Source of the DNA: Escherichia phage MN04
Sequence record: MT129654.1
Direction: 5' to 3' (one strand)
DNA length: 64,000 nt
Position numbers and translations under genes: made by a program. The notes under the pieces were generated by a model. It saw only the letters and a list, made by a program, of their open reading frames with translations. It was not told the DNA's origin and searched no databases. This document shows positions 1 through 59,901 of the stretch, in pieces (position 1 is the stretch's first letter; each line of letters starts with the position of its first letter).

Positions 1-869
1 GCAAGTCCACCTAAACCCATTTGGAAAGCCATGTTTTCAAGAGCCATTTGTCTTGAACGGTTTTCTTTATTGTAAACCGGACCTACAACACTATGCCTGC
101 CTATATCGTTTTGAACTTTTTTAAGGTCTTCTTGGAATAACTTGGAAGCCTCGTCCATTGATATTGCACCCGGGTTTCCTTTAACTTCACGACCTATTTG
201 ATTAGATAATATTTTGTTTATCTGATTCATATCTCTAATAGGTTGTGGTGTAATAAGGTGACCTATACCAATAGTAGGGTATCCTTCGGTATCCCAATAT
301 ACCTTCAGTCTAAGCCCTTCATCACGATGAAGCATGTTTTCTATTGTGAAATTAGGATTATCATCAGGCTTAACTTGGCTTAAATCTAATCCATCCGGAT
401 TAATACCTACATCAGTGTTTGCATCTTGTATTACGTTAGAAGTGGCATCATATCCAACTTCACCACCTCGGTTTAGTGCAGCGGCATCATTACCTAAATA
501 AAGCGGATACTGTCCTGTCGGGTCACTAAAACCTTCGTTTGGATTTGCCTTTTGTTTTGAAGCCGAACCGTATGTACCGAGGACAAGCCCGTTTAATTTC
601 CACTTATCAAGAAAGTGTCCGTAAACTTGTGTACCTGGGACCATACCAGTCATAGCGGTTTGGATACCTGAAACAGAGGCAGAAGATGTAGGCATTAATA
701 CCGACATCCATGGTAAATCTTCTGTACGAAGGCCTTTTACAGGACCTTGTACTTTTTCATATGGATGCATACCCCAGACGCGTACGCGTACTCGGCCTTG
801 TTTGAGTGGGTCCATTCGGTCTTCAACTACACCGACGAACCAACTTAAATTATCAGACATGTTAATCAT
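1..869 (-). CDS. 5: baseplate hub subunit and tail lysozyme gp5, N-terminal portion (gene continues beyond window start)
   Basis: Minus-strand reading from ATG at 869 gives MINMSDNLSWFVGVVEDR... and a T4-lysozyme-like block RDEGLRLKVYWDTEGYPTIGIGHLI; start overlaps gp53 stop (TAATG); T4 order 53-5. Confidence 0.85.
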   Translation of the reverse strand, partial: MINMSDNLSWFVGVVEDRMDPLKQGRVRVRVWGMHPYEKVQGPVKGLRTEDLPWMSVLMPTSSASVSGIQTAMTGMVPGTQVYGHFLDKWKLNGLVLGTYGSASKQKANPNEGFSDPTGQYPLYLGNDAAALNRGGEVGYDATSNVIQDANTDVGINPDGLDLSQVKPDDNPNFTIENMLHRDEGLRLKVYWDTEGYPTIGIGHLITPQPIRDMNQINKILSNQIGREVKGNPGAISMDEASKLFQEDLKKVQNDIGRHSVVGPVYNKENRSRQMALENMAFQMGLGGL

Positions 870-3467: not shown

Positions 3468-4220
3468 TGAAACTAATATCAATTGTAGGAATCAAACGTA
3501 GCGGTAAGGATACCGTTGCTAACTATGTAATTGAGAATATGGATTCCGTAAAATTCCAACTCGCTGGTCCTATTAAAAAGTATCTGGCTGAAGCTTATGA
3601 ATACATATCTGATGACCCTGTATTCGACCGTAGCTATATGCCTAAACTTGATTTTAACTGTTTTGAAGGTATCGGTTACGACCGTGAAGAAATCCTTCCT
3701 TTAAAACCATATGATGTGGTTGATATTTTTGAACATGCTATTGTTAAACTGAATAATATCCTTCCTATTCCAGGAATTGATGTTCTTACCGCATATCATT
3801 ATGGTCTTACCCCGGTCCAGTATCTGTCTGAAGAAACAAAAGACCAGCTATTTGAAGTAATAAATAAAAATAACAATTGGTCAGTACGTCGTCTCATGCA
3901 GACCCTTGGGACTGATATTATTGTTAACCAATTTGATAAGATGTATTGGGTTAAGTTGTTCGCTTTAGACTATTTTGATAAAATATACTCTGATGCGAAA
4001 TACTATGTCGTACCTGATGTTCGTCAAACACATGAAATTGATTCGCTCAGAGCGATGGGTGCTACGATTATTCATGTAGTTCGCGCTGAAACCGGTCAAG
4101 TACAAGACTCGCACATCACTGAAGCGGGTCTACCAATTTTACCTGGTGACGTTGTTGTTGAAAATAACGGCACTCTTTCTGAACTATACACCACTATTGA
4201 TAAATTATTAGGAAATAAAA

Positions 4221-4228
<8 letters not shown>
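3467..4228 (+). CDS. 1: deoxynucleoside monophosphate kinase gp1 (253 aa)
   Basis: N-terminus MKLISIVGIKRSGKDTVANYV...QLAGPIKK matches remembered T4 gp1 (P-loop GxKRSGKDT). Confidence 0.9.
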
Positions 4229-5127
<899 letters not shown>

Positions 5128-17145: not shown

Positions 17146-17175
17146 TATAAATACCTCCTATAATCAGGAGGTATT
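17146..17175 (+). promoter_or_regulatory. late promoter TATAAATA fused to an RBS-sequestering hairpin for gene e
   Basis: TATAAATA 17146-17153; hairpin acctcc-tataatc-aggagg places the SD in the 3' arm; same arrangement is known for T4 gene e. Confidence 0.6.
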
Positions 17176-17664
17176 ATGGATATTTTTGATATGTTACGTC
17201 AAGACGAAGGTCTTGATTTAAATCTTTATAAAGACACTGAAGGTTATTGGACTATTGGTATTGGCCAGTTAGTTACCAAGAACCCATCTAAAGATGTTGC
17301 TCGCGCTGAACTTGATAAGCTTATGGGCCGAGTTTGTAATGGTCGTATTACTATGGCTGAAGCTGAACAACTCTTTAATCGTTCAGTGGAAAATGCTCGT
17401 AGAGCTATAATGCGTAATCCTAAATTGAAACCGGTTTATGATGTGCTGGACGAAGTTCGTCGTTGCGCATTGATTAATATGGTCTTCCAAATGGGCGAAG
17501 CTGGTGTAGCAGGATTTACCAACTCTCTGCGTATGCTCCAACAGAAACGTTGGGATGATGCCGCAGTTAACCTGGCGCAGTCTCGTTGGTACAAGCAAAC
17601 CCCGAATCGTGCCAAGCGTGTTATCGCCACTTTTAAAACAGGTACTTGGGCTGCTTATAGATAA
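17176..17664 (+). CDS. e: endolysin (T4 lysozyme e, 162 aa)
   Basis: [32 protein letters not shown]... is near-identical in pattern to T4 lysozyme. Confidence 0.95.
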
Positions 17665-19704: not shown

Positions 19705-19915
19705 ATTGACAATTGAAGGCTCTGATGAAGCCCTGAAGATGTTTGTTGACTGGTTCCACGAACAGGGCGAACAAGGCTTTATGGAATGTTGGGACGGTGG
19801 CCAATGGAATGGTAAAGAAATTGTTTACCCGACTACGTATATCTCTGTTAGTGGTGGATACGATGGCCTTCGTTTTGTAGAATATGATATTGCATCTGAT
19901 GAGGAAGTGAAATGA
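19697..19915 (+). CDS. hypothetical protein (72 aa)
   Basis: Overlapping coupled ORF. Confidence 0.45.
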   Translation: MSKLTIEGSDEALKMFVDWFHEQGEQGFMECWDGGQWNGKEIVYPTTYISVSGGYDGLRFVEYDIASDEEVK

Positions 19916-20190
19916 TTGAAGATATCAAGGGTTACAAGCCACATACCGACGATAAAATCAGTAAAGTGAATGCCATTAAAGATGCTGAAGTTCGATTAGG
20001 CTTAATCTTTAAAGCATTAGAAGAAGAATACGTTGAAGCCTTTACATGCTCAGGTGTTGATAAAATGAGTGATGAAGAATTCGACCTCACTCATGAACGT
20101 CTCGCCCAGATTCGTACGGCAATCGAACGCTTGAAAGAAGCCTCCATGTGGGCCTGTCGTTCTGTTTTCCAACCCGAAGAAAAATACTAA
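19912..20190 (+). CDS. hypothetical protein (92 aa)
   Basis: ATGA-coupled ORF. Confidence 0.45.
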   Translation: MIEDIKGYKPHTDDKISKVNAIKDAEVRLGLIFKALEEEYVEAFTCSGVDKMSDEEFDLTHERLAQIRTAIERLKEASMWACRSVFQPEEKY

Positions 20191-20195
20191 AAGCA

Positions 20196-20240
20196 GTTTA
20201 CATCTCCTGTAGACGTGGTACTATAGACCTATCAACTACA
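20196..20240 (+). promoter_or_regulatory. T4-type early promoter cassette
   Basis: GTTTAC 20196-20201; inverted repeat tctcctgtag/ctacaggaga flanks the core ggtactatagacctatcaa. Confidence 0.6.
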
Positions 20241-20252
20241 GGAGATTACAAA

Positions 20253-20711
20253 ATGTCAGAAATTAATTCAGAAGTATTCATCCGCCGCAACAAATTACGT
20301 CGTCAGTTCGAAACCGAATTTCGTGAACTTAACGCGTCCATCAAAAAAGCCGCCATCAAGAGCGGTGTCCCAGCTTTCTTTATTAAGTACTCTAATCACT
20401 TGTTGGACCGTGCTATCCAACGTGAAATTGACGAAAAATATGTTTTCTCTTTGTTCAAGAAGCTCCATAATCATGTTAAAGAAATCCATGAATTTTTAAT
20501 CCAGGAGCCTCTTCCTGACATAGAATCTGAAATTGTCCCAGGTAAAGTGTATCGTCCACTGCGTCTCGAGATTACCGATAAAACCTTATGGTTGGGTATG
20601 ACCGTAGATCGTAAACATCCTGATAAAGGATATTCATTAAAATGTCGTATGGCATTTGTTAACTCTAAACGTTTAGAAGGTAAAACCAGCACGAAAGTAA
20701 TCTATCTTTAA
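20253..20711 (+). CDS. hypothetical protein (152 aa)
   Basis: ATG 20253 with SD ggag. Confidence 0.5.
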   Translation: MSEINSEVFIRRNKLRRQFETEFRELNASIKKAAIKSGVPAFFIKYSNHLLDRAIQREIDEKYVFSLFKKLHNHVKEIHEFLIQEPLPDIESEIVPGKVYRPLRLEITDKTLWLGMTVDRKHPDKGYSLKCRMAFVNSKRLEGKTSTKVIYL

Positions 20712-20723
20712 TAATGAGGTCTC

Positions 20724-21263
20724 ATGAAAAAAGTATTAGCCACTTTACTATTGACAGTTAGTATGTCTGCCTATAGCGTAGAGCCTACTTTCAGTAATGA
20801 ACAACTCGATAATTTACATTATGCGTATGCTTTCGGTGAACAATACCAAAAGTCGGGAAAGTTCAAAGAAAACCCTAATCAAAAAGGATTAGGATATATA
20901 ATGGCCGGATTATTATGGCAGGAATCATCTGCTGGAATTAATCAAGGTTTAAATAAAGATAAGCACCATGCTTATGGCATGTTCCAAAATTACTTGCCTA
21001 CGTTAAGAAGTCGTGTTCAACAGGTAGGTTGGAAGATGTCAGACAAAGAAATAATTCGTATGGTCCAAAAACGACAGAACAGTGCCTCTTGGGCCTACAT
21101 TGAGCTGTCTTATTGGATTAATGTTCACAAAGGTGACCTGAGAAAAGCGATTGCTTCTTATAATGCGGGCTGGAATGTCAAAGCAGGCAGTAAATATGCT
21201 TCCGAAGTTCTAGAAAAGGCCAATTACCTAAAATCTAAAAAGATGTTTGAGGCGGTATATTAA
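20724..21263 (+). CDS. secreted lytic-transglycosylase-like protein (SLT domain, 179 aa)
   Basis: Signal peptide MKKVLATLLLTVSMSAYS; motifs WQESSAG, GMFQ, SYNAGWN typical of SLT/goose-type lysozyme folds. Confidence 0.6.
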   Translation: MKKVLATLLLTVSMSAYSVEPTFSNEQLDNLHYAYAFGEQYQKSGKFKENPNQKGLGYIMAGLLWQESSAGINQGLNKDKHHAYGMFQNYLPTLRSRVQQVGWKMSDKEIIRMVQKRQNSASWAYIELSYWINVHKGDLRKAIASYNAGWNVKAGSKYASEVLEKANYLKSKKMFEAVY

Positions 21264-21620
21264 ATGATTAAACAGATGACTATAGCGCTTATGTTGATTG
21301 CTCCGGGAGTATTAGCATCACAGGTTGATGATACAAATAATTCAATTGTCGAGTATGCCACCCGTACAGCAAAAGATTATTGTCATCCAAGTAATACTGA
21401 ATGTGTTATTGAATTCAGTTCAAAAATAACAGCTGCTTTTAAAGATGGGCAGAACGACGTCGAGCATCGCCGAATGAAAGAGAAAACTCTTTCTAAAAGA
21501 TACGAGCAACGTCTAAACGTTACTGAATGTGTTCCGTCTGATAAAAAGTACAAAGAAATGTGCGCGTCTATGGTAGACAGACTCGTTGACTCTTACAACC
21601 GAGGGCTAAACTCTAAATGA
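21264..21620 (+). CDS. secreted Cys-containing protein (118 aa)
   Basis: Signal peptide MIKQMTIALMLIAPGVLAS; coupled to the SLT gene. Confidence 0.5.
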   Translation: MIKQMTIALMLIAPGVLASQVDDTNNSIVEYATRTAKDYCHPSNTECVIEFSSKITAAFKDGQNDVEHRRMKEKTLSKRYEQRLNVTECVPSDKKYKEMCASMVDRLVDSYNRGLNSK

Positions 21621-22096
21621 TTATTGATTATATTAAGGGCGATATCGTCGCCCTGTTTCTCCAAGGTAATATTATTGCACATGGGTGTAACTGCTTTCAC
21701 ACAATGGGTTCAGGTGTAGCGGGTCAATTAGCAAGAGCTTATCCTAAAATTTTAGAAATTGATAAGACTACTACCGAATACGGCTCTCGTGATAAATTAG
21801 GTGATATGTCTATTGTTTTTAAACATAAGCCTAATGGATTTGCAATGTGCTATAATTTATACACCCAATACGAACCAGGCCCTAATCTTGATTACGGTGC
21901 TTTAGTAAACTGTATGATAGAATTAAATCTACAAGCAAATGACCTTTTGTTTAAACCAAGAATTTATATTCCTCGTATAGGTTGTGGTATTGCTGGTGGC
22001 GATTGGGACAAGGTTTCTCAATTAATTGATATGTTTACCCCTGATATTGATTTAATAGTGGTGGATTATGAAAGCACATTACCCACATCCGTTTGA
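21617..22096 (+). CDS. macro-domain protein (ADP-ribose binding/processing fold, 159 aa)
   Basis: Motifs HGCNCFHTMGSGVAGQL and IPRIGCGIAGGDW resemble the macro-domain glycine-rich loops; ATGA coupling. Confidence 0.6.
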   Translation: MIIDYIKGDIVALFLQGNIIAHGCNCFHTMGSGVAGQLARAYPKILEIDKTTTEYGSRDKLGDMSIVFKHKPNGFAMCYNLYTQYEPGPNLDYGALVNCMIELNLQANDLLFKPRIYIPRIGCGIAGGDWDKVSQLIDMFTPDIDLIVVDYESTLPTSV

Positions 22097-22280
22097 CCCT
22101 AAAAACAAAGCGGAAATTATTCGGAGTTGGACCGAAACCCGAGTAACTAAATGCCCTATAAAAAGTCAGCATAACACCGATAAATGGTATATTGGTGAAT
22201 ACGTTGAATATACTTTTATAGATAAAAATAAACGTAAACAGCATGTAGAAGAATATTGCTTAAAGGTGCAATGGTTATGA
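22068..22280 (+). CDS. hypothetical protein (70 aa)
   Basis: ORF overlapping the macro gene end. Confidence 0.35.
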   Translation: MKAHYPHPFDPKNKAEIIRSWTETRVTKCPIKSQHNTDKWYIGEYVEYTFIDKNKRKQHVEEYCLKVQWL

Positions 22281-22483
22281 GCCAAGCCCGAATTCTTAAA
22301 ACGGCTAAATGTGAAAAATGTGAATGGCCGGTAATCGCAGCTTTATGCAACGATGAAATGGAATGTGAATTTGATTACTGGTGGTACTGTTCTAATAAAG
22401 GATGTTCTAATCATAAGGGTGAAGGTTTTCATTCTGGTTATTGCGAACATCCTAAATTTGTGCGATATGGTGAACCTAAATGA
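22271..22483 (+). CDS. Cys-rich small protein (about 70 aa)
   Basis: CEKCEW...CNDEMEC...CSNKGC...CEH pattern. Confidence 0.45.
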   Translation: MVMSQARILKTAKCEKCEWPVIAALCNDEMECEFDYWWYCSNKGCSNHKGEGFHSGYCEHPKFVRYGEPK

Positions 22484-22665
22484 GTTTAAGTATTAGTCAG
22501 AAAAGTAGATTGTTTGAGCTTATTCATGAGCTTTTGGATGAACATACCGAAGCAAACGCTTTTTACGATGAATATGGCCCGCTATCCCCCGAACAGCAAG
22601 AAGAATTTGCTGATCGGTTTGATGAGAAAGAAAACGAATTAATTGCTTATGTGAATACGCTTTAA
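22480..22665 (+). CDS. hypothetical acidic protein (61 aa)
   Basis: ATGA-coupled ORF. Confidence 0.4.
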   Translation: MSLSISQKSRLFELIHELLDEHTEANAFYDEYGPLSPEQQEEFADRFDEKENELIAYVNTL

Positions 22666-22674
22666 GAAGGTAAT

Positions 22675-23247
22675 ATGGCTCAACTTTATTTTCATTATGC
22701 GGCAATGAACTCAGGTAAGACCGCTTCATTGCTAACGGCCGCTCATAACTACAAAGAACGCGGTATGGGCGTGCTCCTTTTAAAGCCTGCGATAGACAAT
22801 AGAGAATCAAGCCATACCATTTCGTCTCGTATAGGGATTAGTCAAGAGGCCAATGCGGTGACTCCGGATATGGACCTATACGAGTTCTATCGTTGGGCTG
22901 AATCTCAAAAAGATATCCACTGTGTGTTTGTGGATGAAGCACAGTTCTTAGAACCTGCACAGATAAAACAACTGGCAAAGATAGTAGACAATTATAATGT
23001 TCCGGTTATGTGTTACGGGCTAAGAACTGATTTTCAGGGTAAACTGTTTCCTGGTTCTGCTGAATTACTCGCTACGGCAGATAAACTCGTTGAGTACAAA
23101 GGTGTGTGCCATTGCGGCCGTAAAGCTACTATGACTGCTAGGGTCCAAGATGGTGTCGCAATTAAGGACGGAGCCCAAGTTTCTATAGGTGGCAACGATT
23201 CTTACGTGTCATTGTGCAGGAAGCACTGGATAGAAATAACGAGTTGA
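22675..23247 (+). CDS. tk: thymidine kinase (190 aa)
   Basis: MAQLYFHYAAMNSGKTASLL...CHCGRKATMTAR...SLCRKHW matches remembered T4 tk (P-loop plus zinc-binding Cys motifs). Confidence 0.9.
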   Translation: MAQLYFHYAAMNSGKTASLLTAAHNYKERGMGVLLLKPAIDNRESSHTISSRIGISQEANAVTPDMDLYEFYRWAESQKDIHCVFVDEAQFLEPAQIKQLAKIVDNYNVPVMCYGLRTDFQGKLFPGSAELLATADKLVEYKGVCHCGRKATMTARVQDGVAIKDGAQVSIGGNDSYVSLCRKHWIEITS

Positions 23248-23533: not shown

Positions 23534-23626
23534 ATAGTAATACTAACCGTAGAGCTTTAGCTTTTGGTAATCGCTATCGGTTAAGGCCGAAAGGCAAATT
23601 CGTATAAAATAACAAAGGACTTTTGT

Positions 23627-23920
23627 ATGGGTATTTTCCGTACAGTGGCTTGTATCCTTATGATTGGATGTTTAAGCCCAACATCTTCACTAGCAAACAA
23701 ATCCGACCCTAAATTGATGGACGCCTTTGCTAGTAGTGCGATGCCAGTTTATGCGCAAATGAGTAAACCTAGTGTAAAGGCCTCCGAAGACTACTGGGCT
23801 TATGTAACTGCTTCTTGGAAAATTTCAAATTGCAATACAATAGAGTCTTGCTCGATTGAAGGTCGGGCTATCGGAGAACGATACGCTAAACTAATGAAGG
23901 TAGATGATGAAATTCAATGA
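23627..23920 (+). CDS. putative lipoprotein or secreted protein (97 aa)
   Basis: Signal-like N-terminus ending MIGC; TATAAATA at 23529-23536 upstream. Confidence 0.45.
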   Translation: MGIFRTVACILMIGCLSPTSSLANKSDPKLMDAFASSAMPVYAQMSKPSVKASEDYWAYVTASWKISNCNTIESCSIEGRAIGERYAKLMKVDDEIQ

Positions 23921-50703: not shown

Positions 50704-51204
50704 ATGAAAAAGTTAATTATCGCAATGAGTATGCTCCTATCAGGTTGCGCAGTCCAATACGGTGATGCAGTTTCGGCTGATGAAGTTGGTAAAGCTCGTA
50801 TCGCAGCTGAACAGAAACAATTCGACGGCGAAATGAAATTCCGTGCCGGTTCTGGACTTGTGTATACCCGAGCTAATAATCAATGTGGTAATAACTGTGC
50901 AAAATATGCTCAAAGGGAAATCGAATTCCAACGTGAACAAGAGTCTAAGCGTGAAGCGGTACTAGCCAAACACCAGGCAGAAATGAAGCGCCAAGATGAT
51001 TTGTACAAAAAGCAGAAACTGTATTCTATGTGTGTAAACCATATCAATTTACAGATTTCTGTCCATGAGGCTCGTTATTACGAAATGCTCGAAACCGAGA
51101 GCTTCGATAAGGCTCGTGATTATAAGAAACAAATCAACAAGCTTAAGACCAAAGTGCCTGCTGCAGTAGAACAGTGCATGGAATACGGTAAAGATAAGAT
51201 TTAA
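50704..51204 (+). CDS. predicted lipoprotein (166 aa)
   Basis: Signal peptide with lipobox LLSGC; charged coiled-coil-like mature part. Confidence 0.55.
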   Translation: MKKLIIAMSMLLSGCAVQYGDAVSADEVGKARIAAEQKQFDGEMKFRAGSGLVYTRANNQCGNNCAKYAQREIEFQREQESKREAVLAKHQAEMKRQDDLYKKQKLYSMCVNHINLQISVHEARYYEMLETESFDKARDYKKQINKLKTKVPAAVEQCMEYGKDKI

Positions 51205-59607: not shown

Positions 59608-59901
59608 ATGAAAAAGTTATTAATCGCAGCAATCCTTACAGTAGCATCATGTGGCACGGCTCCGGTAACTGCCGGATTGGATAAAGACCTTTGTGAATGG
59701 TCTATGACTGCAGACCAAGAGTCAGTTGAACATCAGATTTATGCCGATATCATGAACATCACTAAACGTGACCGTCCTGACATGGTTAAAGAAGTGTCCG
59801 ACCAATTAGCTTCAACCGGTGTTATGCAGTACAACTATGTTTTGTATTGTGACGCTAATTTCGATAACAAAAACATTGTTAAAGAGGTTACAGGTGAGTA
59901 A
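59608..59901 (+). CDS. sp: Spackle, periplasmic superinfection-exclusion protein (97 aa)
   Basis: Signal peptide plus DKDLCEWSMTADQ...VMQYNYVLYCD matches remembered T4 Sp (61.3); length identical. Confidence 0.8.
   Translation: MKKLLIAAILTVASCGTAPVTAGLDKDLCEWSMTADQESVEHQIYADIMNITKRDRPDMVKEVSDQLASTGVMQYNYVLYCDANFDNKNIVKEVTGE

Follow-up and report, generated by a model that had tools for sequence, protein, structure and literature searches.

Vs.1 and Vs of T4-like phages as a possible early, exported peptidoglycan-remodelling pair

The family-1 lytic transglycosylases (GH23), among them Slt70 of E. coli, MltE/EmtA and EtgA, an enzyme of type III secretion, carry the motifs E-S, G-x-x-Q and (A/S)-Y-N-x-G, all of which recur in Vs.1, the product of the gene vs.1 in a stretch of 64,000 nucleotides from Escherichia phage MN04 (sequence record MT129654.1) that we analysed as a whole and refer to here as the window. 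EtgA, which is Sec-exported, and MltE come closest to Vs.1 in size and fold, Vs.1 likewise being a single-domain protein of similar size that is predicted to be periplasmic. Unlike the family-1 enzymes, to which it is only 14-19% identical, Vs.1 comes from a virulent phage, is probably made early and is coupled to a dedicated small protein, Vs, which is also predicted to be exported. Among its own homologues, Vs.1 further shows a conserved N-terminal helix (residues ∼23-38, with F23, Q27, N30, A34, Y35 and G38) together with an invariant E127 and W131. The closest functional analogue from a phage is Tgl of staphylococcal Kayvirus phages, which has a signal peptide, is exported by its host, lies apart from the main endolysin and has early-type transcription (PMC7150955). 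Tgl differs in its Gram-positive host and in its demonstrated muralytic activity, whereas the activity of Vs.1 is a prediction, and a coupled, exported four-Cys partner is described neither for Tgl nor for the family-1 enzymes compared here.

Vs itself resembles Spackle (gp61.3), PliG, MliC and Ivy, which bind lysozyme-fold enzymes, in that it is small, has a signal peptide and is predicted to be periplasmic, but the T4 fitness data for vs.1 and vs do not fit a pure inhibitor. By position, by length and by 45% identity, Vs is the orthologue of T4 Vs, known as tau and annotated as the modifier of valyl-tRNA synthetase (ValRS), although, judged by its sequence, the protein would be exported and disulfide-bonded. 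Vs.1 also departs from the endolysin of a phage lysis cassette, as it has no late promoter and its neighbors are regB, vs and tk.4 rather than holin or spanin genes.

On balance we favor the view that vs.1 and vs form an early two-protein module for the remodelling of peptidoglycan in the periplasm, Vs not being primarily a modifier of cytoplasmic ValRS, and we lean modestly toward the two proteins working together. In such a scheme the two genes would be translationally coupled and expressed early with regB, and both products would pass into the host periplasm by the Sec pathway and mature there, with DsbA forming two disulfides that staple the helical Vs. The single-domain Vs.1, using E67 as its only catalytic acid, would cut the bond between N-acetylmuramic acid (MurNAc) and N-acetylglucosamine in peptidoglycan, most likely leaving 1,6-anhydroMurNAc ends, and Vs would act on or with Vs.1 as an accessory that targets, stabilises or tunes it. 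Any physiological role that we assign to the pair is a guess; a limited remodelling or loosening of the sacculus during infection might raise phage yield or spread, mostly on slow-growing cells in minimal medium, and Vs.1-Vs would be no substitute for endolysin E at lysis. A fuller version, which we advance more tentatively, would have the "valyl-tRNA synthetase modifier" open reading frame (ORF) encode an exported, disulfide-bonded accessory subunit of Vs.1, lipid-anchored in some phages, that is not, or not only, a cytoplasmic translation factor. The growth defect on M9 medium would then be an envelope phenotype, the classical locus would have been misassigned or tau would have a second life, and the product of a third ORF (phrog_4957) would join the pair in many phages.

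What looks like the new, testable point is that Vs would be placed in the periplasm, as a partner of Vs.1 and not as a ValRS modifier. Gene names from T4, as the reference phage, have spread into thousands of genomes; should Vs prove periplasmic, an annotation found in textbooks would be wrong or incomplete, and the one conditional phenotype known for vs, that in minimal medium reported in 2025, would need another explanation. A virulent phage would also be exporting a wall-modifying enzyme early, with a dedicated partner, as something distinct from the virion lysozyme used at entry and the endolysin used at exit, and Vs.1-Vs, joined in many phages by phrog_4957, would constitute an early periplasmic module for wall remodelling that has gone unrecognised in T4-like phages. 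To our knowledge, this early stage of the interaction between phage and envelope is almost unstudied.

Predicted export signals in Vs and the valyl-tRNA synthetase modifier label

Vs.1 and Vs share an N-terminal pattern in which one or two Lys/Arg residues, with no acid, precede 10-14 hydrophobic residues, small residues at -3 and -1, and then polar or acidic residues. We scored such features with a crude heuristic for the n-, h- and c-regions of a signal peptide (positive n-region, h-region of 7-15 residues, small -3/-1 residues, polar or acidic residues after the site), which flags 7 of the 171 window ORFs of at least 60 residues, both vs.1 and vs among them. RI and Spackle, which are periplasmic in T4 and served as positive controls, are flagged as well, along with one lipoprotein-like ORF. 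The same heuristic finds signal-peptide features in all 37 aligned Vs.1 homologues and in nearly all Vs sequences, the exception (P0121) having a truncated N-terminus; T4 Vs begins with MTKILVLCIGLISFSASASA and continues DTSY. Among homologues the signal segment varies freely in sequence while the mature part is conserved, and all 48 unique Vs sequences keep both the hydrophobic N-terminus and the two Cys pairs.

Four CC31-like Vs sequences (L033, L037, L038 and L054, with vs at ∼3549-3875) carry a lipobox, L-S-G-C (MKKLFVLLVV.ALSGC), which would make these copies lipoproteins and not soluble proteins of the periplasm. It is from the signal peptide, the lipobox and the invariant Cys pairs together that we read a periplasmic location for Vs, and its export appears very likely. 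These features fit a periplasmic protein and do not square easily with a binder of ValRS in the cytoplasm; judged by them, Vs would fail in cytoplasmic location, the property that the ValRS-modifier label needs.

The initial annotation had placed a second signal-peptide protein with four Cys after the transglycosylase-like gene, and this is indeed vs, whose product has exactly four (C40, C47, C89 and C100). What it missed is that the two genes are vs.1 and vs of T4 and that the partner is annotated as a ValRS modifier, a conflict that is the point of most interest. PHROGs and all annotated relatives give the 118-residue ORF the name "valyl-tRNA synthetase modifier"; it belongs to phrog_1256 (E 4e-34), is assigned PF26829 in precomputed annotation, and matches T4 Vs in length and in its position between vs.1 and tk.4. 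The structure model of Vs is a bundle of about four to five helices, three of them long, with the Cys pairs at helix junctions, and when Vs is aligned with Spackle by hhalign only the two signal peptides align. An exhaustive profile search for Vs returned 8 representative clusters only, which suggests a narrow, phage-specific family; matches were found in 795 phage records, and a 3694-residue repeat protein (P0129) that the profile also matched was rejected as a spurious summed match. Mature Vs would have a mass of ∼11 kDa. In one published expression study T4 Vs, made at full length and His-tagged at the N-terminus, was insoluble in E. coli, an outcome that would agree, if only weakly, with a blocked export signal.

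The alternative that survives best keeps the label as it stands. Vs would be the cytoplasmic factor tau that binds ValRS, its N-terminus holding no working export signal or allowing only partial export; its adjacency to vs.1 would reflect the packing of genes in T4, and Vs.1 would be an independent exported transglycosylase. Membership of the ValRS-modifier family and the identity to T4 Vs speak for this, as do the mass of mature T4 Vs (∼11.0 kDa, near the ∼10 kDa of tau), the specificity of the vs deletion defect for minimal medium, in which tRNA charging and the supply of amino acids are important, and the commonness of gene overlaps in this region. Set against these are the signal-peptide character that 48 unique homologues retain despite sequence turnover, the lipobox of the CC31-like copies, and two invariant Cys pairs, disulfides being normally absent from the cytoplasm. 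Vs was, moreover, never seen apart from vs.1, often with a third exported ORF next to it, and no in-frame Met lies past the hydrophobic segment from which a cytoplasmic protein of ∼10 kDa could start. None of the papers that we found connects tau with this ORF at the level of protein sequence. We regard this alternative as unlikely.

Linkage of vs.1 and vs and their phenotypes in T4

To follow the association of the two genes, we inspected the region downstream of vs.1 in 70 loci, all on viral contigs with a gene for a relative of Vs.1, counting as Vs-like any ORF of 80-130 residues with the pattern C-x(4-9)-C ... C-x(6-12)-C. Such an ORF starts between -8 and +7 nucleotides from the vs.1 stop in 54 of the 70, including Acinetobacter phages whose Vs shows 27% identity over the region aligned by hhalign and keeps the Cys pairs; a truncated or frameshifted copy is found in 2 further loci, and vs lies one position further on in 3. 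The Vs profile retrieved 27 loci, each with vs.1 on the same contig, and vs.1 occurs without an adjacent Vs in Slopekvirus, Aeromonas, Felix-O1-like and Vi1-like phages; Vs depends on the presence of vs.1, and the reverse is not true. Phage vB_EcoM_005 (L008, 3541-3798) has an internally shortened vs of 85 residues, and in another phage (L039, 3549-3876) a frameshift splits vs into two ORFs, each beside an intact vs.1, so that Vs can evidently be lost in nature.

A third signal-peptide ORF, phrog_4957, follows vs with an overlap of 4 nucleotides in 26 of the 70 loci, giving a run of three predicted exported proteins. It encodes ∼130-150 residues with 2-4 Cys, begins ...A and then WEKLPGYP..., and has no Pfam match. 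The window and T4 lack this ORF, tk.4 taking its position there.

Published T4 screens give both genes a measurable cost of loss. By transposon sequencing on LB plates vs and vs.1 are both non-essential, and in liquid competition in LB the mean reads per TA site were 26.6 for vs and 22.6 for vs.1, compared with 179 for regB, 652 for vs.3, 265 for vs.4, 290 for tk.4 and 128 for tk (bioRxiv 10.1101/2025.11.20.689424). From these published counts, insertions in vs and vs.1 are ∼5-30-fold rarer than in the flanking genes, and the similar cost of losing either gene in LB fits a single pathway and argues against Vs merely neutralising a harmful Vs.1. In M9 glucose the same study reports vs as the most depleted gene (log2 fold change -2.19; adjusted p reported as 0, i.e. 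<1e-5) and a log2 fold change of -0.87 for vs.1 (p 0.0055, adjusted 0.155), and a clean vs deletion impaired plaques only in M9 glucose (bioRxiv 10.1101/2025.11.20.689424). Knockdown by CRISPRi-ART gave values of 0.81 for vs.1, one of five "Semi-Fit" genes of unknown function, and 0.35 for vs (PMC11879866). The initial annotation had offered superinfection exclusion or processing of the entry site as possible roles, for which we found no support, the T4 screens showing only a general contribution to fitness that is stronger in minimal medium.

The same data bear on a further alternative, in which Vs is a periplasmic inhibitor or immunity protein that restrains Vs.1 against a premature breach of the wall, as Spackle does for gp5 lysozyme or PliG for g-type lysozymes. 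Vs would suit such a part, being small, predicted to be exported and disulfide-bonded, and coupled directly behind the gene of the enzyme; Vs needs vs.1 to be present and not vice versa, and in M9 the loss of vs is worse than that of vs.1. A pure antidote, on the other hand, predicts that loss of the enzyme is neutral, even where the insertion is polar on vs, whereas vs.1 insertions are strongly under-represented in LB (22.6 against 128-652 in neighbors) and the knockdown is "Semi-Fit". Vs also has no similarity in sequence or fold to Ivy, MliC/PliC, PliG or Spackle. An inhibitory Vs thus seems to us decidedly unlikely.

Vs.1 as a predicted lytic transglycosylase

The initial annotation described the 179-residue ORF as having a signal peptide and SLT motifs of the pattern ES...GMFQ...AYNAG. 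All three motifs are present, as is the n/h/c pattern recognised by our heuristic; the first two read as described, and the third reads SYNAG rather than AYNAG. The first lies within W-Q-E67-S-S, encoded at 20916-20930. We aligned 37 T4-like homologues, with identity down to 42%, and compared 11 distant ones. Invariant in the 37 are E67, S69, G85, Q88, N89, E127, W131, Y146, N147, G149 and Y158. The predicted catalytic Glu, whose absence from homologues would have spoken against an enzyme, is conserved in every homologue examined, and E-S and S-Y-N-x-G are also retained in the Slopekvirus, Felix-O1-like, Vi1-like and jumbo-phage relatives. In a PDB profile alignment E67 falls on the catalytic Glu of g-type lysozyme, although the match itself is insignificant. 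Between E67 and G85 the 37-homologue alignment contains no conserved acidic column, D79 being variable, and this lack of a second conserved acid would favor a transglycosylase over a g-type lysozyme mechanism.

A lysozyme-like, all-helical catalytic fold was found for Vs.1, the AlphaFold model having a predicted local distance difference test (pLDDT) score of 86.8. Orthologues score above the Pfam SLT (PF01464) gathering value of 21.3 bits in T4 (25.1), KP15 (28.0) and Menlow (22.1), and relatives score below it in Acj61 (18.3) and a Felix-O1-like phage (19.4). By fold and motifs Vs.1 belongs with the family-1 lytic transglycosylases, its activity being a prediction, and we hold it highly probable that it is an exported enzyme of the SLT fold. 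The similarity to SLT is not new: it was published in 2003-2006, with E values of 0.012-0.74 for six vs.1 orthologues (Nolan et al. 2006, who also cite earlier PSI-BLAST matches of T4 vs.1 to SLT), and is present in many GenBank annotations, several records naming the protein "SLT domain-containing protein" or "lytic transglycosylase". PHROGs classes Vs.1 as of "unknown function", NCBIfam has no match for either Vs.1 or Vs, and no enzymatic or localisation study of Vs.1 turned up among the papers searched. The search with Vs.1 matched 2013 phage records, and the mature protein would have a mass of ∼18.6 kDa and an isoelectric point of ∼9.5.

Distant relatives with signal peptides also occur, without Vs, in other large virulent myoviruses. 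In the Felix-O1-like phage bumzen (L005, 1501-2049) the relative adjoins rIIA/rIIB near a spanin gene and is annotated "putative lysin", and in the Vi1-like phage Menlow (L006, 1456-2073) it follows homologues of gene 46/nrdA.1.

T4 e mutants do not lyse, which indicates that Vs.1 is not a stand-alone lysin. It might still be an auxiliary one, stored in the periplasm and active only at lysis beside endolysin E, with Vs functionally unrelated to it. The precedent is Kayvirus Tgl, a secreted protein with an early-type promoter that has been proposed as an additional endolysin (PMC7150955); vs.1 also has e on one side, 3 kb upstream, and rI on the other, 2.4 kb downstream, and the Felix-O1-like homologues have the genomic setting and the name just described. 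Such a role leaves the conserved coupling of vs.1 to vs unexplained, there is no late promoter upstream of vs.1, and in e mutants Vs.1 alone cannot bring about lysis, so that an auxiliary lysin is in our judgement very unlikely. We also considered and rejected Vs.1 as a virion or entry enzyme, on account of its signal peptide and early gene, and as a signal-arrest-release (SAR) endolysin, on account of its short h-region and cleavage-type c-region. That Vs.1 is an inactive peptidoglycan-binding protein, or is tethered by an uncleaved, SAR-like signal-anchor, is suggested by the sub-threshold Pfam score of the window protein and by a cleavage site that comes from heuristic prediction only, but we give it almost no credence, given a catalytic Glu and three SLT motifs that are invariant across ∼48 sequences and a hydrophobic core of ∼11-14 residues followed by small -3/-1 residues and acids, as in the cleaved type, where SAR segments are Gly/Ala-rich and span ∼20 residues.

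Several observations weigh against a periplasmic Vs.1-Vs module. Classical T4 work links an in vivo alteration of cytoplasmic ValRS to the vs locus, evidence that concerns the genetic locus and not the protein sequence of Vs, and the minimal-medium phenotype of vs also fits a translation-related role. Tight packing with overlapping stop and start codons is common throughout T4-like early regions. The drop of vs.1 in M9 is not significant after correction, and polarity on vs, or its translational coupling to vs.1, could account for the transposon and knockdown effects seen for vs.1. The model of Vs is of moderate confidence (pLDDT 74), and its comparison with the PDB gave nothing specific and no known partner or inhibitor fold. 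As for Vs.1, the window protein scores 15.3 bits against Pfam SLT (E 0.015), below the gathering score, and a search of solved structures with its profile returned insignificant matches only (g-type lysozyme, E 0.28, and a spurious metacaspase).

Layout and expression of the locus

The window is T4-like and derives from a JS98-like Dhakavirus, positions 20000-22700 being 99.0% identical to Escherichia phage JS98, whose vs.1 and vs show 99% identity to the window ORFs. The JS98 record places vs.4 and regB upstream of vs.1 and vs, and tk.4 through tk downstream. The ATG of vs directly abuts the vs.1 stop (TAA-ATG), and the vs stop overlaps the start of tk.4 (ATGA). The features discussed are collected in Table 1, from which it can be seen that Vs.1 is, as the initial annotation had it, separate from both endolysin e and gp5.

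Table 1. Features of the vs.1-vs locus and related genes (positions in the window unless stated otherwise)
Feature	Position	Strand	Remarks
vs.1 coding sequence, 179 residues	20724-21263	+	Predicted exported SLT/GH23 lytic-transglycosylase-like enzyme
Vs.1 signal peptide, residues 1-18	20724-20777	+	MKKVLATLLLTVSMSAYS then VEP; predicted cleavage after AYS, approximate
E67-S68 codons, SLT motif I	20922-20927	+	Predicted catalytic Glu-Ser; E67 invariant in 37 T4-like and 11 distant homologues
G85-M-F-Q88-N89, SLT motif II (G-L-M-Q type)	20976-20990	+	G85, Q88 and N89 invariant in the 37-homologue alignment
S145-Y146-N147-A148-G149, SLT motif III (A-Y-N-x-G type)	21156-21170	+	Y146, N147 and G149 invariant in 37 homologues and distant relatives
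vs coding sequence, 118 residues	21264-21620	+	Helical protein with four Cys, predicted to be exported; annotated "valyl-tRNA synthetase modifier"
Vs signal peptide, residues 1 to ∼19	21264-21320	+	MIKQMTIALMLIAPGVLAS then QVDD; predicted
C40 ... C47, first Cys pair, turn between helices 1 and 2	21381-21404	+	Invariant in 23 and in 48 sequences
C89 ... C100, second Cys pair, before and inside last helix	21528-21563	+	Conserved; helix placement from model
regB endoribonuclease gene	20253-20711	+	Upstream of vs.1; Pfam REGB_T4 E 2e-69; JS98 annotation
tk.4 macro-domain gene	21617-22096	+	Directly after vs; Pfam Macro E 3e-8
T4 early-type sigma-70 promoter-like site, GTTTACA-N17-TGgTACTAT	20197-20224	+	Upstream of regB; consensus match only
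Endolysin e	17176-17661		Separate gene, 3 kb upstream of vs.1; own late promoter TATAAATA at 17146
gp5 lysozyme fragment	3-344	-	Left edge of window
RI lysis-inhibition gene, phrog_1246	23627-23920	+	∼2-2.4 kb downstream of vs.1/vs
Spackle gene, phrog_1586	59608-59901	+	N-terminus MKKLLIAAILTVASC resembles lipobox
phrog_4957 ORF in other loci	∼3810-4310 in each		L017, L018, L033, L037-L046, L048, L050, L052-L059, L063-L065

The promoter-like site upstream of regB is likely to start a regB-vs.1-vs-tk.4 transcription unit, and no terminator-like site was found on the + strand between it and position 23600. The generic sigma-70 promoter scan as a whole gave no excess over chance. Between 17153 and 23529 there is no further copy of the late promoter TATAAATA, with none upstream of vs.1, and no MotA-box motif immediately precedes vs.1. 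In T4, the original sequence record marks a potential promoter of the vs.1 ORF within the 3' end of regB. Early transcription of vs.1-vs together with regB is thus likely from the layout of these elements. The suggestion that both genes sit in an early operon and not among lysis genes holds as far as the neighbors and the missing late promoter go, and the early unit itself is plausible.

Two of the surrounding genes relate to defence. The T4 orthologue of tk.4 is AdfM, an anti-DarTG2 defence factor (bioRxiv 10.1101/2025.11.20.689424, a 2025 preprint). Just upstream of regB, the orthologue of vs.4 (19912-20190, + strand) has a match to the Acb2/Tad1 hairpin domain of Pfam (E 5e-16) and is likely to be a cyclic-nucleotide sponge anti-defence protein.

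The ribosome-binding site of regB (20236-20255), acaGGAGattacaaaATG, contains GGAG, the RegB cleavage motif, which is consistent with autoregulation; that of vs.1 reads GAGG, not GGAG. MotA-box-like sequences (TGCTT-N13-15-TANNNT) occur 28 times in the window, mostly on the + strand, against 10.8 expected, a number reached in none of 100 shuffles and consistent with many T4-type middle promoters; one of them lies inside tk.4 (21898-21923). A 166-residue ORF of phrog_1754 (50704-51204, + strand) has a clear lipobox, MKKLIIAMSMLLSGC, and is predicted to be another exported phage protein.

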